Assembly (NCBI GenBank): GCA_017454945.1
Contig: JAFTCA010000010.1
Coordinates: forward strand, 161,619 to 225,618
Direction of reading: 5' to 3'
Source: Bacteroidales bacterium
GTDB lineage: Bacteria; Bacteroidota; Bacteroidia; Bacteroidales; WCHB1-69
DNA length: 64,000 nucleotides
Under the pieces are notes generated by a model. The model ran no database searches, was not told the origin of the DNA, and worked only from the letters and a program-made list of their open reading frames with translations. A program made the translations under genes and the position numbers. Positions 5,297-46,874 of this stretch are shown one piece after another (within the stretch, counting starts at the first letter, position 1; each line of letters starts with the position of its first letter).

Positions 5297-5305
5297 TCTG
5301 ATACT

Positions 5306-5686
5306 ATGACACATACCGACAACATTTATTCTGGCACAATCATCAAAGGGCTCCAAAACGGACGCAAATTTGGATTCCCCACTGCCAACATCGAATTGGC
5401 CGAGGGACTGCTGCCGCCCGAAACAGGCATCTATGCTGTCAAAGTATGGCTCGAAAAACAATCTCTGTTCGGTATGCTCTATGTGGGCACACGCCCTACC
5501 TTGCAACTTGACAAACTCTCCATTGAAATACATCTTTTTAATTTTCAAGAAGATATTTATGGACAACAGTTGCAATTCGAGATTCTGAAAAAAATACGGG
5601 AAGAAAAAACTTTCGACTCACCACAACAACTTATTGACCAATTACGTTTAGACAAACAACACATTATCCGACTTTTGAATGAATAA
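5306..5686 (+). CDS. Monofunctional riboflavin kinase (RibF C-terminal-domain type)
   Basis: 126 aa with the GRKFGFPTANI motif and IEIHLFNFQEDIYG. There is no FAD-synthetase N-domain. Confidence 0.8.
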   Translation: MTHTDNIYSGTIIKGLQNGRKFGFPTANIELAEGLLPPETGIYAVKVWLEKQSLFGMLYVGTRPTLQLDKLSIEIHLFNFQEDIYGQQLQFEILKKIREEKTFDSPQQLIDQLRLDKQHIIRLLNE

Positions 5687-6287: not shown

Positions 6288-6292
6288 CACCC

Positions 6293-16430: not shown

Positions 16431-16465
16431 GTAGAGACGTTTCATGAAACGTCTCTACTTTTTTT
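16431..16465. terminator. Bidirectional terminator between metK and the radical-SAM operon
   Basis: Perfect 28-nt palindrome GTAGAGACGTTTCATGAAACGTCTCTAC followed by T7. It overlaps the last codons of the rSAM gene. Confidence 0.8.
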
Positions 16466-17543: not shown

Positions 17544-17733
17544 CGTTCACAATCAAAGGTTGCTCCGTAGCGGCGGGATCAATTTGATGGATATTTTCTT
17601 TGTACTCGGCGGGGGCCACGCCGTACATCACACGGATATCTCCATCGCCATCCTCCTTATTACAGGAGACCATCATCGAAGAAAATCCCAACACACCGAT
17701 TAAAAATCGCAAAAATCTTTTTTTTGTTTTCAT
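17524..17733 (-). CDS. Small lipoprotein (69 aa), short paralog carrying only the YGxPxAxY motif
   Basis: Lipobox MMVSC followed by ...MYGVAPAEYKEN... Appears translationally coupled to the rSAM gene. Confidence 0.55.
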   Translation of the reverse strand: MKTKKRFLRFLIGVLGFSSMMVSCNKEDGDGDIRVMYGVAPAEYKENIHQIDPAATEQPLIVNDEEQSH

Positions 17734-17757
17734 GTTTTTTTTTGGAGTTAATATATT

Positions 17758-18174
17758 CTATTCGCTATCTTTCTTTTTCAAAATGAAATTGATTTCTTTG
17801 GTCAGCGTACCATAATCCCAATTGTCTCTTTTGTTTTCTTTTTTCATTTCATCACGTTCATACTTCAAATCTATTATCGCCGATTCAAAATCCCCTCCAT
17901 TTTCCTCGCCATCAATATCAGTTACTGCAACTCTAAGGGTTTGATATTCACCACCAATCTCTAACGATCCATGTGCTTGATAGTTTCCAGCGGCATCAGT
18001 GTACACCTTATTCCATTCGTTTCCTACTTGAACTTGAATATTGTTGATGGGTTGATTTTCCTCATCCATCACTTTTCCCGAAACTTTAAAGTCGGCATGA
18101 GGTGAGCCATAACAGGCCGTCAGGGTGACGCCCATGATGGGGAAAAGGAGCAGTAATATTTTTTTCAGTTTCAT
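17758..18174 (-). CDS. rSAM-associated lipoprotein (CarboxypepD_reg-like beta-sandwich)
   Basis: Lipobox LTAC followed by YGSPHADFKVSGKVMDEENQPI...TDAAGNY...TDIDGEENGGDF...GTLTKEINFILKKK. Confidence 0.8.
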   Translation of the reverse strand: MKLKKILLLLFPIMGVTLTACYGSPHADFKVSGKVMDEENQPINNIQVQVGNEWNKVYTDAAGNYQAHGSLEIGGEYQTLRVAVTDIDGEENGGDFESAIIDLKYERDEMKKENKRDNWDYGTLTKEINFILKKKDSE

Positions 18175-18193
18175 GATAATAATTTTTAAGAGG

Positions 18194-18595
18194 TTATTCT
18201 TTCTTTTTCAGTGTGAAATTAATTTCCTTGGTCAGCGTACCTTCATTCCATCCACTCCCTCCCTGCAAGTCGCCACGGCTGTAGGTTATCGTTTTTATCT
18301 GAGGCTCAAAATCCCCACCATTTGCTTCTCCGTCAATATCGGTAGCCGTTACGAGTAGGGATTCTCTCCCTAATCGCAAATCACCGTGCGCTCTATAAAT
18401 GCCCTCTGCGTCTGTATAAAATGTATCGTACTGTTGTACAACCACTTGAATATCTTGCAATGACTGATTATCCTCATCTGAAACCTGACCTTTGATTTCG
18501 TAAGTGGCTTTTGGGGTTCCATAAGCTGCAGTATGGTAGCACGTTGCCAATGAAAAGCCTAACAAACTCAACAAAAACGTTAATAAGCGTTTCAT
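18194..18595 (-). CDS. rSAM-associated lipoprotein, paralog
   Basis: Lipobox LATC followed by ...AAYGTPKATYEIKGQVSDEDNQSL...TDAEGIY...TDIDGEANGGDF...GTLTKEINFTLKKK. Confidence 0.8.
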   Translation of the reverse strand: MKRLLTFLLSLLGFSLATCYHTAAYGTPKATYEIKGQVSDEDNQSLQDIQVVVQQYDTFYTDAEGIYRAHGDLRLGRESLLVTATDIDGEANGGDFEPQIKTITYSRGDLQGGSGWNEGTLTKEINFTLKKKE

Positions 18596-33147: not shown

Positions 33148-33687
33148 TTACGACTGCTTCCCTATATTTTCCTCAATCATCTCTTTGAGGTATTGCACAA
33201 TTTCGGGGTTCTGGACCGACATGCCGTCCAGGGCCTCGTTCACTTCGTCGGTGTCAAGTACAAAGTCGGTCTGGTCGTCTTTGTAGTGAAAGATGAAGCG
33301 CACATCAGGATAGGAAGAGAGTGTGAGCACCACGGCGCCGGCCAGGTCGCCCATAGGCTTGCGGTCGATGTGTGTCAGGCCGAAGGTGGCAGTCACTTCG
33401 GTGCCTTTGCCCACCTCTGAGGTTATGTTGAACGAGCCTCCCGTCAGCTCGGCGTTCTGCTTGAGCAGCGGCAGGCCTAATCCCACCTTACGCGTGGTGC
33501 GCGTGGTGAAGAACGGCTCTGTCACCTTTTTCACCATCGCCTCATCCATGCCGCAACCATTGTCCTTGAAACGGAGCACCAGCTTGTCGTCGGCAGTGCT
33601 TTTCTCCACATCCAGTTCAATCTTCGTGGCCTTGGCGCGGGTAGAATTCTGTAATATATCGATGATATGTAGAGATAAGTCTTTCAT
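33148..33687 (-). CDS. GHKL (HATPase_c) ATP-binding protein
   Basis: DNGCGMD, GLGLPLL and EVGKGTEV boxes, with no DHp or His-phosphotransfer domain. Confidence 0.8.
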   Translation of the reverse strand: MKDLSLHIIDILQNSTRAKATKIELDVEKSTADDKLVLRFKDNGCGMDEAMVKKVTEPFFTTRTTRKVGLGLPLLKQNAELTGGSFNITSEVGKGTEVTATFGLTHIDRKPMGDLAGAVVLTLSSYPDVRFIFHYKDDQTDFVLDTDEVNEALDGMSVQNPEIVQYLKEMIEENIGKQS

Positions 33688-33699
33688 TATAAATGGTTT

Positions 33700-34440
33700 T
33701 TAAGTTAAAGAAACCAAACGCCCCTGCTCCTGATGCAGAGCCAAACGGATCTCCTCAAACGAGCGCGTCTCCATCTCAAAATAGCAGGGTGACGTGCCCA
33801 CCACGTCGGGAATGTGCGCATCGGAAGCACGCGTAAATGTTTTGTCTTTGAGGTAGGAATGCTCCTTCAAAATCTTCTCCTTGTCGCCAAACTTCGACAA
33901 CTCAACAGCATCGTAATCCAAATCGAAAGGAATAAAGCCCAACTGGGAGATAACACTATACTTCGGTTTGTCGATATGGGCTGGAATGAACAGGCCGTTA
34001 AGCTCCTTTACCTTTTTATTTATCTGACTTATAGATTCATCCAAGCACGAAGTGAGCAGCCGAGGTTCCTCATAAACGATATTGTCATCCTCATCAATCT
34101 GCACTTGGTCACCGAAAAGGTCGGGTGAGTTGGGTATATTGGGAAGATGCTCGTCGAGGTACTGCTGGAAAGCGTCCAGTTGCTCGTACGTCTCGAAAAA
34201 AGCCAGACAGTGCGCTTCTTCCTTCGTCGTCACCTCGGCGCCGCATAGGATGAAGATGTTGCGGCGCTTGGAGTAGTGCTGAGCCAAGCGGCAGTGACGG
34301 GTGGCGTTGTGGTCGGTGATACCCAGCACATCAACGCCGCGCTGTAACGCCAGCTCGACAATATACTCGGGTGTCATGTCCAAATCGCCACACGGGGAAA
34401 GAAGCGTGTGGTTGTGCAAATCGACTTTGTAGCGGGTCAT
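33700..34440 (-). CDS. PHP-domain phosphoesterase
   Basis: DLHNHTLLSPCGD...ITDHN...SDAH motifs. The ATG at 34440 is preferred over the TTG at 34461. Confidence 0.8.
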   Translation of the reverse strand: MTRYKVDLHNHTLLSPCGDLDMTPEYIVELALQRGVDVLGITDHNATRHCRLAQHYSKRRNIFILCGAEVTTKEEAHCLAFFETYEQLDAFQQYLDEHLPNIPNSPDLFGDQVQIDEDDNIVYEEPRLLTSCLDESISQINKKVKELNGLFIPAHIDKPKYSVISQLGFIPFDLDYDAVELSKFGDKEKILKEHSYLKDKTFTRASDAHIPDVVGTSPCYFEMETRSFEEIRLALHQEQGRLVSLT

Positions 34441-34454
34441 GGCGCAAAGGCTGT

Positions 34455-34787
34455 TTAGCAAATCAGCTGATATACCTGACCTGCCGTTTCAAAGGTCTGC
34501 TGTGAAGTGCCCAACACGGGAATCTCTTCTTCTACAGCATGTTGCAGCGTATCCTCTTCGGGCTCAAAGCCTTTGACAAGGATAATGCACGACAAATCTT
34601 TCAACGAAGCGATGGCAGCCACATTTTGGTGAGTTTGCAAAGTAATCCAGGCCATGCCCGATTTTGCGTTGCCCATCACATCGCTCAGCAAGTCGGATAC
34701 ATAGCATCCTTCAATAGTTCTATCTAAGTTGGTTTCTCCGCAGAAGATTTTCAGATTCATCTTCTCTGCTAATTCTTTTACTGTCAT
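34455..34787 (-). CDS. DRTGG-domain protein (copy 2)
   Basis: 110 aa with ...VSDLLSDVMGNAK...ITLQTHQNV... Paralogous to 36787-37134. Confidence 0.75.
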   Translation of the reverse strand: MTVKELAEKMNLKIFCGETNLDRTIEGCYVSDLLSDVMGNAKSGMAWITLQTHQNVAAIASLKDLSCIILVKGFEPEEDTLQHAVEEEIPVLGTSQQTFETAGQVYQLIC

Positions 34788-34794
34788 ATTGTTA

Positions 34795-34936
34795 GGGTTT
34801 AGGTTTAAAAGTTAAGAAGTTAAGAAGTTAAGAAACTAAGGAGTTAAGATTATATAAAGTGAATAAGTGAGGAGTTAAGATTATGTTCTTCTAATTGTAA
34901 ATTATTAATTGTCAATTGTAAATTATAAATTGTGAA
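34795..34936. repeat. Short-word intergenic array splitting the six-gene cluster
   Basis: Three tandem copies of (a)gttaagaa plus aactaaggagttaaga. Positions 34912-34933 are the exact reverse complement of 32981-33002 (22 nt). Confidence 0.8.
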
Positions 34937-36319
34937 TTACTCTATCGCCAAGTCCGCAATATTATCGGGGTTAAACTTATCGGTACCCCAAATCTGGTAG
35001 GCAATCTGCAGTGCTTCTTCGGTTGAGAGGCGGGCATTTTGTTCCAATATGCGTTGAATGAAGACGCAGCGCTTAATGTCGGTTTTTTCGCTACCCACGG
35101 CCAGCGAGAACTCCTTGCACGACTGGTAGCCGCACATACGGCAGTCGATTTGCGGCAGGTGCTTGTTGATAGAAATGGATTTCTCCATCTTGCGCATAGC
35201 CACGCTGATGTCATTGTCGAGCTTGTCCATAGAGCGCGGCTCCACCTTGCCTACCTTGCTGTGTTTATCTAAGTAGTCGGCATCGGCCAGCAAGCCGTTC
35301 TCCTTCACAGTCACTTCGGCGGGACTCTTCTCGGCTCTATATTTCTGTTTTTCAACGATAAGGAAGCGGTTGTTGGCGCAGAGGATGCCGCCAGCGCAAC
35401 TCTGGTCGCATGCGCGCAGTTCGAGGAAGTCGATATCGTCAATATCCTCATTTTCCAACTTCTCCAAGAATGTGGAAACGTTGTGCACATCGTCAATTGC
35501 CAAGTTACGACCTTTTTTCAGCAGGCTGATTTCACCGTCGGTCAGCGCCCACAGCAACGCATCTTTCGACAAGATGTTCATACGAAGATCGGCGGGTGGA
35601 GGTGGACAATCGCCCTGCTTGATACGACGCAATACTTTGTTATACAAGTAGTTCATATTGATAACGCCATCAATGGGCGACTTCTCATCACCCACAGGGC
35701 TTTTCACGGCAGCAATCTTGGCGGCGCAAGGAGCCACATAGAAAATGCCGATGTCTTCAGGAGCAACACCCTGTGTCTCAACAAGATGCTTTTTGATATA
35801 CAGGGCGGTCAAATCCAACGGCGGCTTGGTCAGCATCAGGTTGCCTACCAGCGAGGGAAACTTCACCTGTATCAATCGCACGATAGCGGGGCAGAACGAA
35901 GAGATGACGGGCATTCCCCTATCGGGATCTTGCATCTTCTTGGATAACAACTGCTTAATCACATCCACACTCTGTTCTACTTCATAAATATGTCGGAAGC
36001 CTAAATCGGCCACAGCGGCCACAATATCTTTTTCTTTAACTTTGTCAGGAAACTGCGATCCGAAAATGGAAGGGCATAGAAGCACAGGAACCTTATAGTT
36101 GTAAATCGTTTGGAAGTCGTCCTGTTCAATGTAGATAGCGTGCACGGGACAGGCCAGATAGCAATGGCCGCAGTCGATACAACGGTTATCGTCTAACACG
36201 GGGCGACCGTTTTCGATATGGATGGCGGCGGTAGGGCAGCACTCGGTGCAATGCGAGCAGCCTATGCACAAGTCATACTTGAATTTAAGGGCGTGATGAA
36301 ACGATTCTTGAGCTTCCAT
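34937..36319 (-). CDS. [FeFe]-hydrogenase-like Fe-S protein with degenerate H-cluster motifs (putative sensor)
   Basis: N-terminal 2x[4Fe-4S] (CIGCSHCTECCP, CIDCGHCYLACP). The hydrogenase large-subunit-like core carries SSFCPAIV, VAPCAAK and ACDQSCAGG in place of TSCCPxW, MPCxxKxxE and MxCxxGCxxG. The C-terminal CRMCGYQSCKEF...RCVF resembles the RnfB-type putative Fe-S domain. Confidence 0.75.
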   Translation of the reverse strand: MEAQESFHHALKFKYDLCIGCSHCTECCPTAAIHIENGRPVLDDNRCIDCGHCYLACPVHAIYIEQDDFQTIYNYKVPVLLCPSIFGSQFPDKVKEKDIVAAVADLGFRHIYEVEQSVDVIKQLLSKKMQDPDRGMPVISSFCPAIVRLIQVKFPSLVGNLMLTKPPLDLTALYIKKHLVETQGVAPEDIGIFYVAPCAAKIAAVKSPVGDEKSPIDGVINMNYLYNKVLRRIKQGDCPPPPADLRMNILSKDALLWALTDGEISLLKKGRNLAIDDVHNVSTFLEKLENEDIDDIDFLELRACDQSCAGGILCANNRFLIVEKQKYRAEKSPAEVTVKENGLLADADYLDKHSKVGKVEPRSMDKLDNDISVAMRKMEKSISINKHLPQIDCRMCGYQSCKEFSLAVGSEKTDIKRCVFIQRILEQNARLSTEEALQIAYQIWGTDKFNPDNIADLAIE

Positions 36320-36321
36320 GG

Positions 36322-36732
36322 TTAAAAATTGTTGGTTATTTCAACGGTAGTGCCTTTACCCACGACGGAATGGACTTCCAGCACATCCGAGTTGGCTTTG
36401 ATGTTGGGCAAACCCATACCAGCACCGAAGCCCATCTCACGCACTTCGGGCGAAGCGGTGGAGTAGCCGCGTTGCATAGCCTGATTGATGTCGGGAATGC
36501 CAGGACCTTCGTCATCCAACTTGATGTAAATTTTGTCTGAGTCCAGTTGTACCGTGATAACCCCTTTGTAAGCATGAGCCACGATATTGACCTCGGCCTC
36601 GTACAGCGCCACAATGGTCCGCTTGATAACACCTGCATCAACGCCGAGTTGACGCATCATCTTCTTGACCTTGCTGGACACCGTGCCCGCATTTGTAAAA
36701 TCGCCGCCTTGTACCGGATATTCAAAAACCAT
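36322..36732 (-). CDS. Small GHKL ATPase, anti-sigma-factor/RsbW-like serine kinase fold
   Basis: 136 aa with EAEVNIVAHAY, DEGPGIP, GFGAGMGLPN and VGKGTTVE. Confidence 0.75.
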   Translation of the reverse strand: MVFEYPVQGGDFTNAGTVSSKVKKMMRQLGVDAGVIKRTIVALYEAEVNIVAHAYKGVITVQLDSDKIYIKLDDEGPGIPDINQAMQRGYSTASPEVREMGFGAGMGLPNIKANSDVLEVHSVVGKGTTVEITNNF

Positions 36733-36786
36733 AGTTCTGCTAAATTGGATTAGTAATAAGGATAATTATGCCAATGTACACCGTTT

Positions 36787-37134
36787 TTAATACAACGGTG
36801 AGAGGCCATGAGCATACAAAATGCCCGACGTGCGGAACAGCGTGTAGTTCGTCTGAATGAGCACCATGCCGTTCTCTTCGGCCAATTCTTTCATCTCGTC
36901 GGTAATGTTTTTTCCTCTTACGAACAAGACGATTTGGATGTCAGACATCTCGCATGTCCGGATAGTTTGGGTGTTGGCTAACCCTGTGATGAGCATCAGC
37001 GAGTCGGTATCCTTGATGGTGAGCACATCGCTCATCAAATCCGAAGCAAAAGCGTTCGTAACTTCTTCATTTTCAACATCGCCACCCACAACCAAAGTAC
37101 CTTCAACAAGAGAAATAATTTCTTTAATCTTCAT
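36787..37134 (-). CDS. DRTGG-domain protein (copy 1)
   Basis: 115 aa with ...ASDLMSDVLTIKDTDSLMLITGLANTQTI... Confidence 0.75.
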   Translation of the reverse strand: MKIKEIISLVEGTLVVGGDVENEEVTNAFASDLMSDVLTIKDTDSLMLITGLANTQTIRTCEMSDIQIVLFVRGKNITDEMKELAEENGMVLIQTNYTLFRTSGILYAHGLSPLY

Positions 37135-37216
37135 GATTACGAATTTTATAATTTTGTTCGCAAAGATAGGAAATTAATTCTCAAACTCCCATATTTATTT
37201 TCATTTTGAATAATAA

Positions 37217-37290
37217 TTCCAGCAGATTACGCGTATTGACGCGGATTGTTTTCGGCGTTGTTCTGCGAGTTCTGTGAGTTCTGCGAGAGA
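37217..37290. repeat. Short-word array (cagattacgcg / gacgcggatt, then gttctg[c/t]ga x3)
   Basis: 9-bp tandem gttctgcga gttctgtga gttctgcga, just upstream of a TATTTTTG -7 box and the polyferredoxin gene. Confidence 0.65.
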
Positions 37291-37345
37291 GAAAAAATTT
37301 TTTCATTATTTTTGCCATTCATTTGCTAATCTAACACACCTTTTT

Positions 37346-38806
37346 ATGCTTCGAAAAATTAGAATTGGCCTTGCCGTACTCTTTTTCATTCTGCTAACGC
37401 TGCTATTTTTGGATTTTACCGGCGCGTTGCATCACTGGTTCGGCTGGATGGCCAAAATTCAATTCGTACCCGCCGTTCTGGCCATTAATGTCGCCGTTGT
37501 CATCGGCTTGATTGTCATCACTTTGCTATTTGGAAGAGTCTATTGCTCCGTCATTTGCCCATTAGGAATCTTCCAAGACATCTTCTCGGGAATGGCAAGC
37601 CGTATCAAGAAAAATCGCTTCCATTACCACAAAAACAGACCTATTTTAAGAGGTGTCATTTTATTGATTTTCATTATTTTACTAATTTTTCTACCACCTA
37701 TTGCGCGGCTCATTGAACCTTACAGCGCCTTTGGTCGCATGGCCGCCAATCTGTTTGCCCCGCTGTATGCGTGGTGTAACAACCTGCTGGCACAAATTGC
37801 CGAGCGTGCCCAAAGCTACGCCTTCTACTCGGTGGATGTGTGGTTGAAAAGCCTCTCGTCGCTCATTATTGCCGCAGTGACCTTCGTGGTGATTGCCGCC
37901 TTGGCTGTCTGGAAAGGCCGTATTTGGTGCAACACGGTCTGCCCTGTCGGCACGATAATGGGCTTCCTGTCGAAATACGCTTATTTCAAGCCTGTAATCA
38001 ATACCGACAAGTGCAACCACTGTGGCCTCTGCGGCCGCAACTGCAAAGCCGAGTGCATCAACTCGCAAGAGCAAGCCATAGACTACAGCCGCTGCGTGGC
38101 CTGTATGAACTGCCTCTCCAACTGTCATCAGAAAGCCATCAGCTACAAGCATATCCCCAAAGTCACAGCCGCTGATGACCAGCCCGACCAGTCGAAGCGC
38201 AAGTTTTTGGCTATCACAGCTTTATTTACTGCTGGCTCCGTACTCAAAGCCCAAGCCCAAAAGGTGGACGGTGGCCTGGCGGTCATTGAGGACAAGAAAG
38301 TGCCCGAACGCAAACTGTCGCCCTGCCCTCCCGGTGCCCGCAGCTATAACAACTTTTATCACCGCTGCACTTCGTGCCAGTTATGTGTGGCCGAATGTCC
38401 TAACCATGTGCTGCGCCCCTCAAACAAGCTCACCTCGCTGATGCAACCCGAGATGTCGTATGAGCGCGGCTACTGTCGCCCCGAATGTACGCGCTGCTCG
38501 GAAGTGTGCCCCACAGGAGCCATTGAGCGCATCACGCCTGTGGAGAAGTCCTCCATCCAGATTGGCCACGCCGTATGGATTAAGGAAAACTGCCTCGCCT
38601 ACAACGGTGGCAATTGCGGCAACTGCGCCCGCCACTGCCCCGTCGGCGCCATCCAGATATTGCCCGCCAGTGAAGGCAGCGTGCAACAGACCGTGGCAGT
38701 CAACACCGAGCGCTGCATCGGCTGCGGCGCCTGCGAGAACCTCTGCCCCGTGCGGCCACTCAGCGCCATCTACGTCGAAGGCCACGAACAACAGCGAATC
38801 CTATAA
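37346..38806 (+). CDS. Membrane-anchored polyferredoxin (NapH-like N-domain plus multiple 4Fe-4S motifs)
   Basis: TM helices with CSVICPLG and CNTVCPVG, followed by several CxxCxxCxxxCP motifs. The ATG at 37346 is preferred over the GTG at 37274. Confidence 0.8.
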   Translation: MLRKIRIGLAVLFFILLTLLFLDFTGALHHWFGWMAKIQFVPAVLAINVAVVIGLIVITLLFGRVYCSVICPLGIFQDIFSGMASRIKKNRFHYHKNRPILRGVILLIFIILLIFLPPIARLIEPYSAFGRMAANLFAPLYAWCNNLLAQIAERAQSYAFYSVDVWLKSLSSLIIAAVTFVVIAALAVWKGRIWCNTVCPVGTIMGFLSKYAYFKPVINTDKCNHCGLCGRNCKAECINSQEQAIDYSRCVACMNCLSNCHQKAISYKHIPKVTAADDQPDQSKRKFLAITALFTAGSVLKAQAQKVDGGLAVIEDKKVPERKLSPCPPGARSYNNFYHRCTSCQLCVAECPNHVLRPSNKLTSLMQPEMSYERGYCRPECTRCSEVCPTGAIERITPVEKSSIQIGHAVWIKENCLAYNGGNCGNCARHCPVGAIQILPASEGSVQQTVAVNTERCIGCGACENLCPVRPLSAIYVEGHEQQRIL

Positions 38807-38826
38807 CTCCCTTAAAGCGAAAACTC

Positions 38827-40665
38827 ATGTCACAAGAGAAATATATCAACAGAAGAGACTTTTTGAAAGTGCTGGGCGGCGGTGCAGCAGCCACTGCGGC
38901 CATCATGGCGGGCTGCACACCCAAAGAATACACCTCTTCGGGCGGACCGCAAGGCGAGGTGCCCACCGACAAGATGACCTATCACACCAGCAGTCGCGGC
39001 GACAAAGTGTCGTTGCTGGGCTACGGCTGCATGCGACTGCCTACCGTCAACGGCGCCAGCGGCCGCGAAGATAAGAACGCCGACCTCGACCAGGAAGCCG
39101 TAAACCGACTGATAGACTACGCGTTAGACCACGGCGTGACCCTGTTCGACACCTCCCCCGCCTACTGTCAGGGACAATCTGAAAAGGCCGTGGGCATCGC
39201 CCTGAGTCGGCACCCACGCAACAAATATTTGGTTTCCACCAAGTTATCCAACTTTACAGCCTACTCGCGCGAAGAGTCGCTGAAGATGTACCACAAGTCG
39301 TTCAAAGAGCTGCAAGTGGATGTCATCGACTACTACCTGTTGCACTCAATTGGTGGTGGCAAAGATTGGATGAAAACACTAAGCGACAGATACTTGGACA
39401 ACGGAATTCTCGAGTTTCTATTGAAAGAAAGAGAAGAAGGAAGAATTCGCCATCTGGGCTTTTCCTACCATGGCGACGTTCGGGCCTTCGACTACCTGCT
39501 TTCGAAGCACGACGAGTACAAGTGGGACTTTGTGTTGATACAGCTTAACTATGTGGACTGGAAGCACGCCAAGCAGATCAACCCCCGCAACACCAATGCT
39601 GAATATCTCTATAGTGAATTGGAAAAGCGTGGTATTCAGGCGTTTGTGATGGAACCTCTGTTGGGCGGAGCCTTGGCCTCGCTCAACGACCATGCCACCC
39701 AACTGCTTCGCCAGAAAGAACCTGAGGCCAGCACCGCATCGTGGGCTTTCCGCTTTGCCGGCTCCAAACCCAAAATCCTCACCGTGCTTAGCGGCATGAC
39801 CTACATGGAACACCTGCAGGACAACATCCGCACTTACTCGCCACTGAAAGAATTGACCGATGAGGAATATGCTCTGCTTGAGGAGATTGCCGACATCTAT
39901 GTCAACTTCCCCATCATCCCATGCACCAGTTGCCAGTACTGCATGCCCTGTCCTTACGGCATTGACATACCCGGCATTTTTGCCCATTACAACAAGTGCC
40001 TCAATGAAGGGTACATTGTAGAAGACCGCCGCAGTCCCGAATACAAAAAAGCACGCCGCGCCTTTCTGGTAGAGTACGACCGCAGTATTGAGCGACTGCG
40101 CCAAGCCGACCACTGCATCAACTGTGGACGATGTCAGCCCGCCTGCCCGCAGCAGATCGCCATCCCAAAGGAGCTGCACCGCATCGACCGCTTTACCGAA
40201 GACCTGAAACGCAACGGCGCTGAATTGGGCTCTGCCGCTCTGCTCACCGGCCTCATCCGCCACTTGGACGAAGGCAATTACTCGTGCGTCATCTACAAAA
40301 ATGGCGAGATGAGAACTGGCACACAACGCGGTGTCCTCGACTTGTACGGCATGGTGAAAAGCAAAGACACCTTCCTCAAAGACGCCAGCATGGCCGACAA
40401 GGTTGTGGGCAAAGGCGCCGCATACCTGATGGTGCTGGGCGGCATCAAAGAGCTGCGCACCCATGTGATATGCACACCTGCATTGCAACTACTTCAAAAA
40501 CATAATATTAAAGTCACTTTTGATAAGGAGGTGGACTATATCATCAATCGGAGCAAAACCGATTGGTGCCCGCTGGAAAAGAGAGTCAAAGAGTGCCGCA
40601 CGCCCGAAGAGGCATGGCCCGTGATAGAACAGTTTGTCAACGATTTGTTGGCTGGCAATATTTAA
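38827..40665 (+). CDS. Tat-signal lipoprotein: aldo/keto reductase, 2x[4Fe-4S] and a DUF1893-like C-terminal domain
   Basis: RRDFLKVLGGGAAATAAIMAGC (twin-Arg plus lipobox), AKR core (GYGCMRLP...), CTSCQYCMPCP and CINCGRCQPACP, and an extra C-terminal domain of about 130 aa. Confidence 0.8.
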   Translation: MSQEKYINRRDFLKVLGGGAAATAAIMAGCTPKEYTSSGGPQGEVPTDKMTYHTSSRGDKVSLLGYGCMRLPTVNGASGREDKNADLDQEAVNRLIDYALDHGVTLFDTSPAYCQGQSEKAVGIALSRHPRNKYLVSTKLSNFTAYSREESLKMYHKSFKELQVDVIDYYLLHSIGGGKDWMKTLSDRYLDNGILEFLLKEREEGRIRHLGFSYHGDVRAFDYLLSKHDEYKWDFVLIQLNYVDWKHAKQINPRNTNAEYLYSELEKRGIQAFVMEPLLGGALASLNDHATQLLRQKEPEASTASWAFRFAGSKPKILTVLSGMTYMEHLQDNIRTYSPLKELTDEEYALLEEIADIYVNFPIIPCTSCQYCMPCPYGIDIPGIFAHYNKCLNEGYIVEDRRSPEYKKARRAFLVEYDRSIERLRQADHCINCGRCQPACPQQIAIPKELHRIDRFTEDLKRNGAELGSAALLTGLIRHLDEGNYSCVIYKNGEMRTGTQRGVLDLYGMVKSKDTFLKDASMADKVVGKGAAYLMVLGGIKELRTHVICTPALQLLQKHNIKVTFDKEVDYIINRSKTDWCPLEKRVKECRTPEEAWPVIEQFVNDLLAGNI

Positions 40666-40691
40666 TGTAAATAACTTAAAACAAAATAATT

Positions 40692-40898
40692 ATGATGACA
40701 TTATTATTTATGGGAACCACCGAAATTATCATCATCGCCGTAGTCATTATTCTGCTTTTCGGCGCTAAAAAAATTCCCGAACTGATGAAGAGTTTAGGCA
40801 AAGGAGTGAAGAGCTTCAAAGACGGCATGAACGACACCGAACAGCCGAAGAACGACGAACCCAAGAAAGAAGATTCCACTTCTGACAATGCCCAATAG
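40692..40898 (+). CDS. tatA: Twin-arginine translocase subunit TatA/E
   Basis: ...EIIIIAVVIILLFGAKKIPELMKSLGKGVKSFKDG... The start may be the ATG at 40710. Confidence 0.9.
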   Translation: MMTLLFMGTTEIIIIAVVIILLFGAKKIPELMKSLGKGVKSFKDGMNDTEQPKNDEPKKEDSTSDNAQ

Positions 40899-41661
40899 CG
40901 AACATACGCAAACATTCTGGGACCATCTGGACGAACTCAGGTCGTGCCTGATACGCATGATTGTGGCCGTACTGGTGTGCGGCATCGTTGCGTTTTGCTT
41001 TAAAGACCTGCTGTTCAAGATTATACTTGCCCCTAAAGAGGCTTCGTTTGTCACCTTCAAACTTATTGAGCGACTCACGGGGCAGGCGTCCGATTTCTCG
41101 CTTACGCTCATCAACATCGACCTGGCGCAACAGTTCATCATCCACTTGAAAGTGGCCTTTTACTTCGGACTGCTGTGTGTCAGTCCCTACCTGCTGTACG
41201 AGCTGTTCAAGTTTGTGGCGCCCGCGCTCTACACGAGCGAGCGGAAATATGCTGTCACTGCGCTGGTTGGCGGCTGCGTGATGTTTTTTGCGGGCGTGCT
41301 GCTCAACTATTTCATCATCTACCCTGTGACGGTCCGTTTTCTCGGCAGTTATCAGGTCAGTGCTGCGGTGCCGAACATCATCTCGCTCGAATCGTACATC
41401 AGTGCGCTGCTGATGCTCAGTCTCACCTTGGGCATTCTATTTGAAATTCCCATATTATGCTGGCTTTTGGCCAAATTCGGTCTGCTGACCGAGGCGCCCA
41501 TGAAAAAGTACCGCCGCCATGCCATTGTGGTTATTCTCATTGTGGCTGCCATCATCACCCCCACCGCCGACGCTTTCACCCTCACCATCGTGGCGCTGCC
41601 CATCTATCTTTTGTATGAGTTGAGCATCGTCATAGTGAAAAAGACAAGTAAGGCAACGTAA
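40888..41661 (+). CDS. tatC: Twin-arginine translocase subunit TatC
   Basis: FWDHLDELRSCLIR... and a six-TM pattern. Confidence 0.9.
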   Translation: MPNSEHTQTFWDHLDELRSCLIRMIVAVLVCGIVAFCFKDLLFKIILAPKEASFVTFKLIERLTGQASDFSLTLINIDLAQQFIIHLKVAFYFGLLCVSPYLLYELFKFVAPALYTSERKYAVTALVGGCVMFFAGVLLNYFIIYPVTVRFLGSYQVSAAVPNIISLESYISALLMLSLTLGILFEIPILCWLLAKFGLLTEAPMKKYRRHAIVVILIVAAIITPTADAFTLTIVALPIYLLYELSIVIVKKTSKAT

Positions 41662-41775: not shown

Positions 41776-42164
41776 GGCACAAAGTGTTTAGTAAACAATC
41801 TCTTTTAGTCTTGCCGATTCGCATTGTTGCAAGAGTGTCACTTTCGCGGCGAATAAACGACCGCATCATTGCACACATCTACCGCGCCGCGAGTAGGCTT
41901 GCGAATTTTCCATGTGTTCCCCACACTGACGTGTGGGGTTATTGATAGGGTGTCCCTACGGGACACTTTCACATGTGGTCATGCGCACATCTTTTCGACC
42001 TCGTAGAGGTCGTCTGTCAGTAACCCCAGATGAGCGTAGCGTAATCTGGGGTATGCGAAAGCCGCTCATACTCACCGCGGTGCGCTATGAAAGTTCAACG
42101 GAGCAATCAACTTGTTCGCCGCGGAAGGGATTCAGTGCCAACAGGAAAACAATCCCCCTTTTTT
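41776..42164 (+). ncRNA. Unassigned large structured RNA, copy B (~389 nt)
   Basis: Colinear with 3791-4187. Shares an identical 33-mer (42021-42053 = 4042-4074). Hairpins at 41919-41938, 41950-41966 and 41997-42011 carry compensatory changes. The terminator is GGGATT...AATCCC plus a T-run. Confidence 0.75.
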
Positions 42165-42349: not shown

Positions 42350-42745
42350 ATGGAAAAAATTAAGTCATTAGCGGATTTGAAAAAGAGAAGAGAAGCTCTT
42401 CAATCCGATTTGAATTTGCGCGAAATGGGCGACAACGCCGAGAAGGTGATCCAAGTGAAGGTTGCCATGGCTACTTGCGGTATTGCTTCAGGTGCCAAGA
42501 AGACTATGGAAGCCATTATCGACGAATGCCAAAAGAACAACGTAGCCGCCGTGGTAACCCAAACCGGTTGCATGGGCTACTGCTATGCCGAACCGACCGT
42601 AGAGGTGAAGAAACCAGGCGCTGACCCTGTTGTTTTCGGATACCTGACCGCCGACAAAGCTGCCGACCTGGTGAAGAAATACCTCATCGGCAACGAGTTA
42701 TTGGAAGGCATCATTCCTGTCAACTATGAGAAAATTGATAAATAA
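42350..42745 (+). CDS. Thioredoxin-like [2Fe-2S] ferredoxin-domain protein
   Basis: 131 aa with the Cys pattern ...ATCGIASG... and ...GCMGYCYAEP... Confidence 0.7.
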   Translation: MEKIKSLADLKKRREALQSDLNLREMGDNAEKVIQVKVAMATCGIASGAKKTMEAIIDECQKNNVAAVVTQTGCMGYCYAEPTVEVKKPGADPVVFGYLTADKAADLVKKYLIGNELLEGIIPVNYEKIDK

Positions 42746-42764
42746 CATTTTAAAATAGACAATA

Positions 42765-44558
42765 ATGGCAAATTACAAATACCATATCTTGATATGCGGC
42801 GGTACGGGATGCCATGCTTCTCAAAGTGCGCTTATCAAAGAGAATTTTGAAAAACTGTTAAAGGAAAACAACCTTGAAAACGATGTTCAGGTTATCGGCA
42901 CCGGCTGCTTTGGCTTCTGCGAAAAAGGCCCCATCGTTAAAATCCTCCCTGATAACACCTTCTACACACAGGTTAAACCCGAAGACGCTGAAGAGATTAT
43001 CAAGGAACACATCATCAAAGGTAGAAAAGTAAACCGCTTGTTATACTTGGATCCCAAGACGCAAGAGCACAAAGATGACTCGAAGCACATGGGCTTCTAC
43101 AAGAAACAGCTGCGTATCGCTTTGCGTAACTGCGGTTTCATCAACCCTGAAAACATTGACGAGTACATCGCCCGCGACGGTTACAAAGCTTTGGCTACCG
43201 TTTTGGAAAAGAACGACCCCGAATGGACCATCGACGTAATCAAGAAGTCGGGTCTGCGCGGTCGTGGCGGCGCCGGCTTCCCCACAGGTTTGAAATGGGA
43301 ACTCTGCCGCAAGAACCAAGCTGATCAGAAATACATGATCTGCAACGCCGACGAAGGTGACCCCGGTGCATTTATGGACCGTTCCATCCTCGAAGGTGAC
43401 CCCAACACCTTGATTGAAGCTATGACCATCGGTGGTTTCTGTATTGGCGCCACCAAGGGTTTGGTTTACATCCGTGCCGAATATCCTCTGGCTATCCACC
43501 GTTTGCAAGTGGCCATCGGCCAAGCTCGCGAATATGGCTTGCTGGGTAAGGACATCCTCGGTTCGGGTTTCGACTTTGACATCGAACTGAGATACGGAGC
43601 AGGTGCTTTCGTATGCGGTGAGGAAACCGCCCTCATCCACTCGATGGAAGGTCTGCGTGGCGAACCTACCTTCAAACCGCCGTTCCCGGCCGTTGAAGGT
43701 TACTTGAAGAAACCCTCAAACGTAAACAACGTTGAGACTTTCGCCAACATCCCCGTTATCATCAACAAGGGTTGGGAATGGTTCTCATCCATCGGAACTG
43801 AGAAATCAAAAGGTACCAAGGTATTCGCTTTGGCCGGCCAGATCAACAACGTAGGTCTGATCGAAGTTCCTATGGGTATCACCCTTCGTGAAGTTATTTA
43901 CGAAATCGGTGGCGGCATCAAGAATGGTAAGAAATTCAAAGCCGTTCAAACTGGTGGTCCTTCTGGTGGCTGCTTGACCGAGAAATTCCTCGATACTCCT
44001 ATTGATTACGAAAACCTGATTGCTGCCGGTTCTATGATGGGCTCGGGTGGTATGATCGTTATGGACGAAACCTCATGTATGGTATCCGTAGCTAAGTTCT
44101 ACCTCGACTTCACCGTTGAAGAATCCTGCGGTAAATGCTCTCCCTGCCGTATCGGTAACAAGAGACTCCACGAGATTCTCACCAAAATCACCGACGGTAA
44201 CGGTACTATGCAAGATTTGGACGAGTTGCGTAATCTTGCCCACGTTATTAAAGACTCTGCTCTTTGCGGCCTTGGACAAACTTCTCCCAACCCGGTATTG
44301 TCAACCATCGACAACTTCTGGGATGAGTATGTTGCTCACGTAACCGAGAAGAAATGTCCTGCTGGCCAATGCAAGGCTCTGAAGCAGTACATCATCGATC
44401 CTGACAAGTGTAAAGGTTGTACGGCTTGCGCACGCAATTGCCCCGTTAACGCTATCTCGGGCACCGTTAAGAACCCGCACACTATCGATCAGTCGGCTTG
44501 TATCAAATGCGGTACTTGCTACGAAAAATGTAAGTTTAACGCAATTAGTATTAAATAA
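42765..44558 (+). CDS. hydB: NuoF-like flavoprotein subunit of the [FeFe]-hydrogenase (HydB)
   Basis: N-terminal 2Fe-2S thioredoxin-like domain, GRGGAGFPTGLKW FMN/NADH site, SLBB region, and C-terminal 2x[4Fe-4S] (CKGCTACARNCP, CIKCGTCYEKC). Confidence 0.9.
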   Translation: MANYKYHILICGGTGCHASQSALIKENFEKLLKENNLENDVQVIGTGCFGFCEKGPIVKILPDNTFYTQVKPEDAEEIIKEHIIKGRKVNRLLYLDPKTQEHKDDSKHMGFYKKQLRIALRNCGFINPENIDEYIARDGYKALATVLEKNDPEWTIDVIKKSGLRGRGGAGFPTGLKWELCRKNQADQKYMICNADEGDPGAFMDRSILEGDPNTLIEAMTIGGFCIGATKGLVYIRAEYPLAIHRLQVAIGQAREYGLLGKDILGSGFDFDIELRYGAGAFVCGEETALIHSMEGLRGEPTFKPPFPAVEGYLKKPSNVNNVETFANIPVIINKGWEWFSSIGTEKSKGTKVFALAGQINNVGLIEVPMGITLREVIYEIGGGIKNGKKFKAVQTGGPSGGCLTEKFLDTPIDYENLIAAGSMMGSGGMIVMDETSCMVSVAKFYLDFTVEESCGKCSPCRIGNKRLHEILTKITDGNGTMQDLDELRNLAHVIKDSALCGLGQTSPNPVLSTIDNFWDEYVAHVTEKKCPAGQCKALKQYIIDPDKCKGCTACARNCPVNAISGTVKNPHTIDQSACIKCGTCYEKCKFNAISIK

Positions 44559-44573
44559 TAAAGCATAGAATCA

Positions 44574-46364
44574 ATGGATACAGTAAAATTAACAATAGAT
44601 AACAGAGAAGTAGAAGTTCCGAAAGGGACTACCATTCTTAAAGCCGCACAGAGCATGGGCATCGATATCCCCACGCTGTGCCATTTTGAGCTGGAAGGTC
44701 TGGACATTCATAACAGACCCGGTGGCTGCCGTATTTGCGTTGTAGAAGTTGAAAAGCGCAGAAACCTGGCTCCCGCCTGCGTTACCGAATGTATGGAAGG
44801 TATGGTTGTAAAGACCAACTCTATCCGCGCCATCAACGCTCGTAAAACCGTTCTCGAGCTGATCCTCAGCGACCACCCCGCCGATTGCTTGCAATGCGCT
44901 AAGAACGGCCGTTGCGAACTGCAGGACCTCGCCGCACGTTTCGGCATCCGCGAGAACCCCTATATGGGTGGAAACCACGTTCAATCGCAATACCAAGTGG
45001 AAGTTTCTCCTTCCATCATCCGCGATATGAACAAGTGCGTTATGTGCCGTCGTTGCGAGACCATGTGCAACGAGCTGCAGACCGTAGGTGCCCTGTCAGC
45101 TATTGAAAGAGGTTTCCCCGCAGTGGTATCCACCGCTTTCAACCAGCATCTCGACCACTCACCTTGTACCTTCTGCGGCCAGTGCGTAGCCGTTTGCCCC
45201 GTTGGTGCTCTGACCGAGGTTGACCATACCTCCAAGATCATCCGCGCCATCGCCGATCCTACCAAGAAGACCGTCGTACAAGTGGCTCCCGCCGTTCGTG
45301 TTGCCCTCGGCGAAGAGTTCGGCATGGAACCCGGCACCATCGTTACTGGCAAGCTGACCGCCGCATTGAAGGCCCTCGGCTTCGACTATGTATTCGATAC
45401 CGACTGGAGCGCCGACTTGACCATCATGGAAGAGGGTACCGAGCTGATCGGCCGTCTGACCAGATACCTCAACGGCGACAAGGATGTGGCTCTGCCTATC
45501 CTGACCTCCTGCTGCCCCGCTTGGGTTAACTTCTTCGAACATCAGTTCCCCGAAATGAGAGCGCTGCCTTCAACGGCCAAGTCGCCTCAACAGATGTTCG
45601 GCGCCATCGCCAAATCTTACTTTGCAGAAAAGATCAACTGCAAACGCGAAGATATGGTCAGCGTATCAGTAATGCCCTGTTTGGCAAAGAAATACGAATG
45701 CAGCCGTGACGAGTTCAAGGTAAACGGCAATCCGGATGTTGACTACTCCATCTCAACCCGTGAGTTGGCCCGCCTGATTAAGCTCGCTAACATCGACTTC
45801 GCTTCGCTGCCCGAAGCTGAATTCGACAGCCCGCTCGGCGAATCTACCGGTGCTGGCGTCATCTTCGGAACCACCGGTGGTGTTATCGAAGCTGCCGTTC
45901 GTACCGCTTACGAAGTTATCACCAAGAAACCTCTTCCGAAGATCGACTTCGAAGAACTGCGCGGTCTGGAAGGCGTACGTTCAGCCACCATCGATGTGGA
46001 CGGTTTGAAACTGAACATCGGTATCGCCCACGGTTTGCGCAATGCCCGCAAGCTTCTTGAAGACATCAAGGCTGGTAAATGCCAATTCCACGCCATCGAG
46101 ATCATGGCATGCCCCGGCGGTTGTATCGACGGTGCAGGTCAGCCTCTCCACCATGGCAACAGCGACATCATCAAAGCTCGTTGGGAAGCCATCTACCGTG
46201 CTGACAAGGAAATGCCTATCCGTAAATCTCACGAAAACCCGTCAATCCAAGCTATCTACAAAGAATACCTTGGCGAACCCTGCGGTCACAAGTCTCACGA
46301 ACTGCTTCACACGCACTACTTCGACAGACAAACTACCGTGGAAGTTGATGTGGATAAAAAGTAA
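44574..46364 (+). CDS. hydA: [FeFe]-hydrogenase catalytic subunit (HydA)
   Basis: All three H-cluster motifs are intact: TSCCPAWV, VMPCLAKKYE and EIMACPGGCIDGAGQP. N-terminal 2Fe-2S and 4Fe-4S domains are present. Confidence 0.93.
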   Translation: MDTVKLTIDNREVEVPKGTTILKAAQSMGIDIPTLCHFELEGLDIHNRPGGCRICVVEVEKRRNLAPACVTECMEGMVVKTNSIRAINARKTVLELILSDHPADCLQCAKNGRCELQDLAARFGIRENPYMGGNHVQSQYQVEVSPSIIRDMNKCVMCRRCETMCNELQTVGALSAIERGFPAVVSTAFNQHLDHSPCTFCGQCVAVCPVGALTEVDHTSKIIRAIADPTKKTVVQVAPAVRVALGEEFGMEPGTIVTGKLTAALKALGFDYVFDTDWSADLTIMEEGTELIGRLTRYLNGDKDVALPILTSCCPAWVNFFEHQFPEMRALPSTAKSPQQMFGAIAKSYFAEKINCKREDMVSVSVMPCLAKKYECSRDEFKVNGNPDVDYSISTRELARLIKLANIDFASLPEAEFDSPLGESTGAGVIFGTTGGVIEAAVRTAYEVITKKPLPKIDFEELRGLEGVRSATIDVDGLKLNIGIAHGLRNARKLLEDIKAGKCQFHAIEIMACPGGCIDGAGQPLHHGNSDIIKARWEAIYRADKEMPIRKSHENPSIQAIYKEYLGEPCGHKSHELLHTHYFDRQTTVEVDVDKK

Positions 46365-46391
46365 TTTTAGTAACAAGAAAAAATCAGAACA

Positions 46392-46874
46392 ATGGATAAG
46401 ATAATCATTAAAATGAAAAAAGAAGTTCGTGAGAAAATTATTGAAATTTGCAACAAATTCAATAATCAACCGGGCGAACTCATCAATGTTTTGCATCAAA
46501 CTCAAGACTACCTCGGCTATCTGCCCGCAGAAGCTCAGGAACTGATTGCCGAATGTCTGCACATCCCCACCGCCAAAGTTTACGGTGTAGTTTCTTTCTA
46601 CGCATTCTTCACCATGACTCCCAAGGGCAAACATCCCATTTCAGTTTGCCTGGGTACCGCCTGCTACGTGCGTGGCGCTGAAAAGGTGCTGGACGCCTTC
46701 AAGAAAGAGTTGAACCTCGAAGTAGGCCAAACCACCGAAGACGGCGAATTCTCACTTACCTGCCTGCGTTGTGTAGGTGCTTGCGGTCTGGCTCCTGTTG
46801 CCATGGTTGGCGACAAGGTTTACGGCCGTTTGGCTCCCGACATGATCAAAGGTATTGTAGCTGAATATAAATAA
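46392..46874 (+). CDS. hydC: NuoE-like [2Fe-2S] subunit (HydC)
   Basis: CLGTACYVRGA ... CLRCVGACGLAPV. Confidence 0.88.
   Translation: MDKIIIKMKKEVREKIIEICNKFNNQPGELINVLHQTQDYLGYLPAEAQELIAECLHIPTAKVYGVVSFYAFFTMTPKGKHPISVCLGTACYVRGAEKVLDAFKKELNLEVGQTTEDGEFSLTCLRCVGACGLAPVAMVGDKVYGRLAPDMIKGIVAEYK

Follow-up and report, generated by a model that had tools for sequence, protein, structure and literature searches.

Electron-bifurcating hydrogenases set the H2 and redox balance of fermenting anaerobes in gut, rumen and sediment, and reports of their link to sensor-type hydrogenases and kinases go back to Calusinska 2010 (cited in PMC3561251 and PMC3608648). That work also defined the [FeFe] hydrogenase class known as M2e or group D (cited in the same two papers and in PMC8163306). 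The only characterised member of this class is TamHydS of Thermoanaerobacter mathranii, which binds the [2Fe] cofactor, turns over H2 slowly and reversibly (PMC8163306), has a high affinity for H2 and undergoes an H2-induced structural change (PMC8163306, PMC13104023). Group D sensory hydrogenases have so far been studied only as isolated enzymes, and the 2026 TamHydS paper considers the naming of interaction partners critical for clarifying the signalling mechanism. Here, we analyse a stretch of 64,000 nucleotides (nt) on a metagenomic scaffold of a gut- or rumen-type Bacteroidales bacterium (contig JAFTCA010000010.1; hereafter the window), in which a putative sensory [FeFe] hydrogenase of group D, HydS, is encoded together with five candidate partners.

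The locus consists of six co-oriented minus-strand genes in two triplets, and their coordinates and domains, as proposed in a first-pass annotation of the window, were confirmed by checking the open reading frames (ORFs) and by Pfam and NCBIfam searches. Triplet 1 opens with DRTGG1 (36787..37134; 115 amino acids, aa), a stand-alone DRTGG protein, followed by GHKL1 (36322..36732; 136 aa), a SpoIIAB/RsbW-like GHKL ATP-binding protein, and HydS (34937..36319; 460 aa). Triplet 2 comprises the DRTGG1 paralogue DRTGG2 (34455..34787; 110 aa), a PHP-family metal-dependent phosphoesterase (PHP, 33700..34440; 246 aa) and GHKL2 (33148..33687; 179 aa), in which a histidine-kinase-type catalytic ATP-binding domain is followed by a conserved extension of ~75 aa. 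We found the locus to be a genuine conserved module, the core of which (sensor-type hydrogenase, kinase-like genes, bifurcating hydrogenase) was already known in outline. New here are natural fusions of GHKL1 to HydS, to DRTGG and to a CBS pair, which provide a first concrete lead on the signalling chain. We lean slightly towards reading the module as a signalling unit built around HydS that informs the bifurcating hydrogenase HydABC(D) of H2 pressure or of the associated redox state. The H2- or redox-responsive kinase/phosphatase switch suggested in the first-pass annotation agrees with the field's working hypothesis for group D (PMC3561251, PMC8163306).

Other described systems resemble the module in part. 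In the group C (M2f) systems, represented by HydS of Ruminococcus albus and Thermotoga and by HfsB of Thermoanaerobacterium (PMC5707799, PMC11837493), a slow hydrogenase-like sensor and a kinase/phosphatase pair likewise lie beside catalytic hydrogenases, and genetics backs a regulatory role, with Rex encoded nearby in some organisms. Group C sensors, however, carry a C-terminal PAS domain and are accompanied by a PP2C phosphatase and a Ser/Thr kinase, whereas the module in the window has no PAS domain and combines a PHP esterase with two DRTGG and two GHKL proteins. The [NiFe] system HoxBC/HoxJ/HoxA (PMC5707799) also couples a low-activity hydrogenase acting as H2 sensor to a GHKL kinase, but the metal site and family of HoxBC are unrelated, and HoxJ belongs to the classical histidine kinases, having a PAS domain and being paired with a response regulator. 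The SpoIIAB/SpoIIAA/SpoIIE and RsbW/RsbV/RsbU modules share with our locus a small stand-alone HATPase_c_2 GHKL protein, a small antagonist-like protein encoded immediately upstream of it and a dedicated phosphoesterase; they use STAS, PP2C and a sigma factor, none of which was found in the window module, where DRTGG and PHP proteins appear instead. Finally, and by analogy only, mitochondrial PDK and BCKDK illustrate post-translational control of a redox enzyme complex by a GHKL-fold kinase and a phosphatase. One of the structural matches of GHKL2 is BCKDK, but homology is limited to the Bergerat fold, and phosphorylation of a Hyd subunit would be purely hypothetical.

HydS and the group D signature

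Pfam recognises in HydS two Fer4 domains, the hydrogenase domain Fe_hyd_lg_C (84 bits) and PF04060 ('FeS') at residues 388-420, the last of which corresponds to the RnfB-type C-terminal Cys motif noticed in the first pass. The two N-terminal [4Fe-4S] motifs, the H-domain and a Cx2Cx4Cx16C motif of exact spacing (C393, C396, C401 and C418) make up the group D architecture, in the domain order of TamHydS. As in TamHydS, there is no PAS domain: Pfam gave no match, and the chain ends 42 residues past C418, which sets HydS apart from group C.

The TamHydS sequence used for comparison was rebuilt from a coding sequence that had been machine-read from the PMC13104023 supplement (435 aa; 17 of 17 published residue numbers reproduced; 99% identical to a database protein). 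In BLASTP, residues 7-423 of HydS align with residues 3-409 of TamHydS at only 33% identity (E 9e-81), and the bit score of 244 compares with 95 for a PAS-less-looking 617-aa group-C-like protein and 67 for the HydA of the window; HydS is thus nearer to the group D reference than to either of the other two. When aligned to TamHydS and to HydA, HydS has, like TamHydS, intact H-cluster ligands (C143, C198, C304 and C308), and the cyanide-binding K201 is in place as well. The H-cluster motifs of HydS had been called degenerate on the strength of SSFCPAIV, VAPCAAK and ACDQSCAGG, as opposed to TSCCPAWV, MPCLAKKYE and MACPGGC in HydA; these motifs are all present as quoted, but with the four cysteines and K201 intact, degeneracy was an overstatement, and the deviations are largely a group D signature. 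A complete H-cluster with catalytic activity had also been named as a sign that would speak against a sensor. The ligands are indeed complete in HydS, while catalysis is documented in TamHydS only (PMC8163306); this sign does not discriminate, because the field still reads the catalytically slow TamHydS as a sensor.

HydS also keeps the proton path that is exclusive to group D (E252, E289, S/T249 and D265 in TamHydS; PMC10407848), in the form of E263, E300, T260 and D276, the residue matching T260 being S249 in TamHydS itself. Across 74 sequences of the Bacteroidota and TamHydS clades, G262, D276 and E300 are invariant and E263 is nearly so. Conversely, the proton-relay cysteine of group A (C299 of CpI) is lost in both proteins, being replaced by F142 in HydS and by Ala in TamHydS. 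An AlphaFold2 (AF2) model of HydS based on the 74-sequence alignment reached a pLDDT of 92.9 and a pTM of 0.90, and only [FeFe] hydrogenases appear among its best Foldseek matches (query-normalised TM-score, TMq, 0.62-0.66); sequence and Foldseek searches of the PDB found no structure of a group C or D hydrogenase. Judged by its sequence, HydS is a full-length TamHydS homologue of group D (M2e), an orthologue-level relative in which all cofactor-binding motifs are kept. Members of the Bacteroidia, namely Parabacteroides, Odoribacter, Alkaliflexus and Proteiniphilum, are already in the published list of 70 group D enzymes.

Within the active-site pocket, the Bacteroidota clade departs from the TamHydS clade, as seen in a comparison of 120 sequences of either type (CpI numbering). 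The position of C299 is Phe (113) or Tyr (7) in Bacteroidota-type sequences as opposed to Ala (110) or Ser (5) in TamHydS-type sequences, that of M497 is Arg in all 120 as opposed to Leu in 96, and the L3 motif reads ACD(E/Q)SCAGG rather than ACxGGCxGG, that is, Asp-Glu/Gln-Ser instead of x-Gly-Gly between the cysteines. The HydS of the window has F142 and R302 at positions 299 and 497, and A196 at position 353, where Ser/Thr is called typical, though not defining, of group D. Position 353 varies within the Bacteroidota clade itself (Thr 48, Ala 40, Ser 29).

These pocket residues bear on an alternative which we consider unlikely, namely that HydS of Bacteroidota senses redox state, not H2. 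Its H-domain would then hold only a [4Fe-4S] cluster or a non-standard site and read the ferredoxin/NADH pool, the signal being relayed by the same GHKL, DRTGG and PHP proteins. Phe or Tyr next to the cofactor amine, the universal Arg at position 497 and the altered L3 motif would all fit such a sensor. In addition, [2Fe]-less hydrogenase-like sensors plausibly exist: in the clade in which HydS is fused to GHKL1 (see below), the cysteines are kept and the PCxxK lysine is lost in 44 of 45 sequences (P0248, P0253, P0295 and 42 others), suggesting that this clade may have no [2Fe] subcluster. The HydS of the window, by contrast, retains the four cysteines, K201 and the full group D proton path, the glutamates of which contact the cofactor amine in TamHydS (PMC10407848); such retention is hard to explain without a [2Fe] site. 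The presence of a catalytic HydA in the window, implying HydEFG maturases in the genome, also speaks against this alternative.

Conservation and arrangement of the module

A locus scan with one genome per species, in which ORFs were searched with the proteins of the window, yielded 80 loci, all of them from Bacteroidota. The nearest genome representatives are metagenome-assembled genomes (MAGs) of Bacteroidales, with HydS at most 66% identical. Triplet 1 was found in the same order and on the same strand in 80/80 loci, at least one gene of triplet 2 in 46 and all three in 38, and in 32 of these 38 six-gene loci HydA and NuoF are encoded as well. The usual layout is co-linear, running DRTGG1-GHKL1-HydS-DRTGG2-PHP-GHKL2-HydD-HydB-HydA-HydC. 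Since order and strand of triplet 1 are kept throughout and all six genes recur in 38 loci, the six-gene arrangement is not a matter of chance. The division into two triplets was upheld, too: they occur together, in swapped order on a rumen contig (L087, triplet 2 then triplet 1), or as triplet 1 alone, the last in 30 loci where 3 kb or more of sequence is available downstream and triplet 2 is missing within 10 kb. We therefore regard the triplets as two separable cassettes. A different rearrangement is seen in L017 and L021, where GHKL2 directly follows HydS and the PHP gene is divergent and lies upstream.

Outside Bacteroidota, the module is carried by Thermoanaerobacter, Caldicellulosiruptor bescii, Coprothermobacter platensis, Thermovenabulum and a Myxococcota MAG, and the six genes followed by HydABC(D) are found in Bacteroidota, Bacillota, Coprothermobacterota and Myxococcota. 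Synteny in four phyla bears out the earlier proposal of one conserved module tied to a bifurcating HydABC: in the neighbourhood check that had been suggested for DRTGG, GHKL, PHP and hydA-like genes, the module recurs beside HydABC(D) in all four. This synteny agrees with published descriptions of M2e genes upstream of bifurcating hydrogenases with kinase genes between them (PMC3561251, PMC3608648). Similar gene sets had been attributed to Thermotogae and Firmicutes, which holds true for Bacillota but not for Thermotoga, whose sensor is of the PAS-containing group C (M2f) (PMC3561251, Table 6). The only consistent difference in the Bacillota and Coprothermobacter loci is the location of hydC between PHP and GHKL2, so that GHKL2 is flanked by structural genes (hydC and hydD).

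Such co-operonic organisation with structural genes might also be expected if the module had no part in signalling, HydS being a low-activity accessory hydrogenase or electron-transfer subunit and the other five proteins serving as assembly or maintenance factors of HydABC(D). TamHydS does catalyse H2 turnover (PMC8163306), and the whole chain of GHKL2 resembles the ATP-driven clamps MutL and Topo VI-B. Nevertheless, we consider this explanation very improbable. There are structures of active purified HydABC without these proteins (PDB 7p5h, 8a6t and 7q4w are HydABC-only entries), 27 of the 30 loci without triplet 2 have no HydABC within 10 kb of triplet 1, and both GHKL proteins display kinase-type sequence motifs.

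The scan also returned variants and neighbours of the module. In L029 and L030, the DRTGG1 ORFs look long (330 and 457 aa) but match nothing in Pfam; they are first-start-codon artefacts, not fusions. Comparison of 26 triplet-1-only loci showed no further shared neighbour; the recurrent downstream gene in 12 of them encodes an arsenic-efflux-family protein and is probably unrelated. In many Bacteroidota loci (L047, L049, L057, L062-L064, L068, L071-L073, L075, L078 and L079), genes for a second hydrogenase, a trimer of NuoE, short NuoF (~390 aa) and HydA, lie 5' of triplet 1, and the sensor module in these loci is thus sandwiched between two different hydrogenases. On the complete Bacteroidales chromosome of L040, a second HydS-like protein (5255-7108, minus strand; 617 aa) is encoded 2 kb from the six-gene module and adjoins a trimeric hydrogenase of NuoE, short NuoF and HydA. 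It has a TSNCP L1 motif and a C-terminal extension of ~200 aa without a Pfam match; with both HydS types near each other, there are therefore two sensor types in one locus.

In L088 (6646-14924), a DRTGG protein, a CBS-GHKL1 fusion, a HydS-like protein of 506 aa and a second DRTGG protein, with neither PHP nor GHKL2, are followed by an RnfCDGEAB operon. Because this set directly precedes the Rnf operon, triplet 1 may serve redox enzymes beyond hydrogenase, and a triplet-1-like set at such a place would also suit a redox sensor. In L086 (12223-15276) and again in L088 (1-3025), HydB is fused to a GltD-like NAD(P)H/FAD domain (1017-1039 aa).

Partner proteins and a possible signalling chain

Pointers to a signalling chain come from natural fusions of GHKL1. 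An exhaustive HMMER search of 1.84 billion cluster representatives with GHKL1 gave 1600 matches at E ≤ 1e-3, the best 150 of which were examined. Among these 150, 46 carry Fe_hyd_lg_C and PF04060, GHKL1 being fused N-terminally to a HydS-like protein and lying directly N-terminal to its ferredoxin domain (508-607 aa; e.g., MDY0059750.1 from Myxococcota). An N-terminal CBS pair is present on 24, replacing or joining DRTGG, which would again fit a redox sensor. By phmmer, eight are DRTGG1-GHKL1 fusions (Pfam detects DRTGG in four of the 150; e.g., WP_424906316.1 from Thermovenabulum) and one is a GHKL1-DRTGG2 fusion. The fused proteins are encoded within the same module, as in L086, with the order Rex, DRTGG, GHKL1-HydS fusion, DRTGG2-like, PHP, GHKL2, NuoE, Fdx, HydB, HydA, and L089, with Rex, DRTGG-GHKL1 fusion, HydS, DRTGG2, PHP, NuoE, GHKL2, Fdx, HydB, HydA. 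Because GHKL1 is naturally fused to HydS in other lineages, we nominate it as the putative direct partner of HydS, and the fusions together speak for DRTGG1, GHKL1 and HydS working as a single physical unit. The regulatory insert of family II pyrophosphatases contains both CBS and DRTGG domains, and since they interchange or combine on GHKL1, a second input from adenine nucleotides is hinted at. Searches of a literature library found no mention of DRTGG together with a hydrogenase in such a context and no discussion of locus tags such as Cthe_0336 and Cthe_0337.

When 16 Bacteroidota orthologues are aligned with three from Bacillota and Coprothermobacter, all five partner proteins display invariant catalytic or shared motifs. 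DRTGG1 itself reaches 23.2 bits with Pfam DRTGG, just under the cut-off of 25.2, but its domain call is upheld because it is a full-length paralogue of DRTGG2 (22% identity), which matches both DRTGG and Hpr_kinase_N. Its cross-phylum invariants are D32-L33-M34-S35, T50-G51-L52, R59-T60, R73 and K75, the DLxS motif with the invariant Ser35 being common to both DRTGG proteins. GHKL1 matches HATPase_c_2 (E 6.8e-12, 46 bits), and its top NCBIfam match is the anti-sigma F factor SpoIIAB (E 6.5e-17; 61.7 bits, below the model cut-off of 135); its N box (E45, E47, N49, H53), G1 box (D74xG76xG78) and G2 box (G101-FGAGMGL) are intact. PHP matches Pfam PHP and PHP_C and keeps across phyla all of its metal motifs, H16xH18, D50-H51, E76/E81, H84, H162 and D214xH216 (numbered on a 253-aa ORF; see below). 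A role in anti-phage defence was considered and rejected, given that PADLOC returned only a domain-level match of Ppl to PHP (32.7 bits) and none for the other five proteins.

GHKL2 matches HATPase_c (E 4e-18; motifs N14, D42xG44xG46, PFFTTR and G69xG71) and is the most conserved of the six proteins, with ~70% identity among Bacteroidales; no fusions were seen among its 120 best matches. In its AF2 model (pLDDT 82.7), the N-terminal 105 residues match the CA domains of histidine kinases and BCKD kinase in Foldseek. The absence of a His-kinase dimerisation domain noted earlier for GHKL2 applies to both GHKL proteins, Pfam finding HisKA in neither; with 136 and 179 aa and no invariant His outside the N box, they do not conform to a two-component kinase. 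PDB sequence searches with the five partners gave nothing informative (no match for DRTGG1, only E > 0.3 for DRTGG2 and only E > 1e-3 for PHP). The predicted ATP sites of GHKL1 and GHKL2 and the predicted metal site of PHP are intact.

A signalling unit around HydS could work as follows. H2 would bind at the slow H-cluster of HydS and cause a conformational change. GHKL1, an ATP-dependent switch or serine kinase, would dock on HydS close to where the N- and C-terminal Fe-S domains of the sensor meet, and would read its state; in a model of TamHydS, the N-terminal ferredoxin domain packs against the C-terminal cluster domain (PMC13104023). The DRTGG proteins would take the STAS role of SpoIIAB/RsbW partner switching, either as phospho-acceptors, with Ser35 of the DLxS motif as candidate phosphosite, or as nucleotide-sensing regulators. 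Resetting the switch would fall to the PHP esterase, where a PP2C phosphatase is usual, and GHKL2, whose gene lies among the hyd structural genes in Bacillota and Coprothermobacter, would deliver the output.

Several points weigh against this reading. In the window, the module lies 5 kb from the hyd operon and is inverted, unlike the directly adjacent arrangement in related loci and beside TamHydS, whose gene adjoins a bifurcating HydABC and a kinase-like ATPase; moreover, 30 loci have triplet 1 without triplet 2, and mostly without HydABC, within 10 kb. The Bacteroidota pocket, with its Phe/Tyr, Arg and Asp, has no characterised enzyme. The 2026 TamHydS paper describes the partners as unidentified and the C-terminal cluster of TamHydS as not responding to H2. 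DRTGG proteins have no documented phosphorylation, and as phospho-acceptor Ser35 is a guess from conservation. The nearest named relatives of PHP are the PHP domains of TrlF and Ppl, followed by CehA/McbA, pAp phosphatase and RNase Rnm, with no protein phosphatase among them; by sequence, the subfamily thus resembles nucleases and nucleotidases (TrlF, Ppl, Rnm), not the PHP protein phosphatases. Lastly, the whole chain of the modelled GHKL2 aligns best in Foldseek with MutL and Topo VI-B, in their N-terminal regions (TMq 0.52-0.56); these ATPases are clamps, not kinases.

As for the output of the proposed unit, we favour post-translational control of HydABC(D), by analogy with the GHKL kinases and phosphatases that act on mitochondrial 2-oxoacid dehydrogenase complexes, over transcriptional control as second choice, because hydrogenase subunits are the only universally conserved neighbours and because a DNA-binding protein, Rex, adjoins the module in only a minority of loci (about 7 of 89 examined). 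The alternative, which strikes us as possible but somewhat unlikely, is that the same sensor controls expression of hydABC and fermentation genes through Rex or through an unlinked regulator or sigma factor, with GHKL1 acting as an anti-sigma-type kinase. The SpoIIAB match of GHKL1 would be in line with this, as would the location of Rex directly 5' of DRTGG1 in L066, L072, L073, L079, L086 and L089, which span three phyla; as Rex is an NADH sensor, these sets are also compatible with redox sensing. Transcriptional effects are also known for a related system, since hfsB genetics in group C changes adhE and hydrogenase transcripts (PMC5707799), and an AraC-type regulator lies beside TamHydS (Land et al.; PMC8163306).

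The window itself, by contrast, offers little for transcriptional control. The first-pass annotation had seen no response regulator, STAS partner or sigma factor, and this is weakly borne out: the 64 kb gave no match to three single-sequence probes of low sensitivity, which targeted receiver domains, STAS domains and ECF sigma factors. In L081-L083 and L086-L089, the genes flanking the module that have Pfam annotations include no STAS or sigma-factor gene either. No Rex gene was found in the window, and Rex-box matches (TTGTGAAnnnnTTCACAA, ≤3 mismatches) occur at chance frequency (7 vs 4.8 expected), none of them in the module or in the hyd promoter regions. The placement of GHKL2 between hydC and hydD in Bacillota and Coprothermobacter likewise argues against a transcriptional output.

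Elements of these readings can be joined into one that we regard as doubtful, namely an undescribed ATP-driven partner switch, with DRTGG for STAS and PHP for PP2C, that is wired to an Fe-S sensor and controls HydABC post-translationally, HydS of Bacteroidota, with its Phe/Tyr299, Arg497 and Asp500, having a non-standard H-cluster or none and sensing redox, not H2. For the signalling unit that we favour, the locus and its relatives offer a short list of partners, a first contact in the GHKL1-HydS fusion and a candidate phosphosite in Ser35 of DRTGG. The Bacteroidota HydS clade is abundant in rumen and gut metagenomes and could matter for the management of H2 and methane in ruminants.

Gene spacing and surroundings of the module

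The six genes are separated by gaps of 54, 2, 149, 14 and 12 nt. The GHKL1 stop codon lies only 2 nt from the HydS start, and the two genes are therefore almost certainly translationally coupled. The PHP ORF was listed earlier as 33700-34461 (253 aa) with a TTG start; the ATG at 34440, which gives 246 aa, is most likely the better start because it is used by the public gene call and fits the N-termini of cross-phylum orthologues. The two triplets are separated by an AT-rich spacer of 149 nt (34788..34936), in which short direct repeats occur (TTCTTAAC three times, CTTAACTCC twice) along with several sigma-70-like hexamer pairs, the sigma-70/terminator scan being uninformative for a Bacteroidetes genome. 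In related loci, the HydS-DRTGG2 gap measures 2-40 nt or about 215 nt, and the spacer in the window may hold an internal promoter or mark a transcription-unit boundary. In the divergent intergenic region 5' of DRTGG1 (37135..37345), TATCTTTG occurs at 37168-37161 on the minus strand, 26 nt 5' of the DRTGG1 ATG; it fits the Bacteroidetes -7 promoter consensus, TAnnTTTG, and is a putative promoter.

On the opposite strand from the module and 5 kb away, the HydABC operon reported in the first pass is real (plus strand, 42350-46874; Pfam and NCBIfam). It starts with a HydD-like gene (42350..42745; 131 aa) for a small ferredoxin-like subunit, followed by HydB (42765..44558), the NuoF-like flavin and Fe-S subunit of a bifurcating-type hydrogenase, HydA (44574..46364), a catalytic group A [FeFe] hydrogenase, and HydC (46392..46874), a NuoE-like [2Fe-2S] subunit. 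HydA scores 897 bits against a cut-off of 765 with NCBIfam NF040763 (NADH-dependent group A6 [FeFe] hydrogenase). The HydD-like protein matched no Pfam or NCBIfam model; an orthologue was found in nearly all related hyd loci, directly 3' of GHKL2 in most six-gene loci.

Between module and hyd operon (37346-41661, plus strand) lie genes for a NapH/NapG-like membrane polyferredoxin (486 aa), a 612-aa fusion of TAT signal, aldo/keto reductase, 4Fe-4S domain and DUF1893, and TatC, a trio found beside the module in 0/80 related loci. Farther away (16455-18595, minus strand), two TIGR04134 'radical SAM-associated' lipoproteins are encoded in tandem 5' of a TIGR04133 radical SAM/SPASM protein, which is not a HydE or HydG maturase; the pairing is conserved and has no assigned function. 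Rfam models matched the 30-48 kb region at two sites only, both below threshold and outside the six-gene module. A group I intron match (40514-40737, minus strand; 26.8 bits vs a gathering score of 50) covers the 3' terminus of the aldo/keto reductase fusion gene together with the spacer that follows and is very likely due to chance. The other match is to Acido-Lenti-1 sRNA (41919-41965, plus strand; 29.6 bits vs a gathering score of 37) and overlaps a GC-rich hairpin, CCCCACAC-TGAC-GTGTGGGG, in the 688-nt gap 5' of the hyd operon, a hairpin that may just be the TatC terminator.

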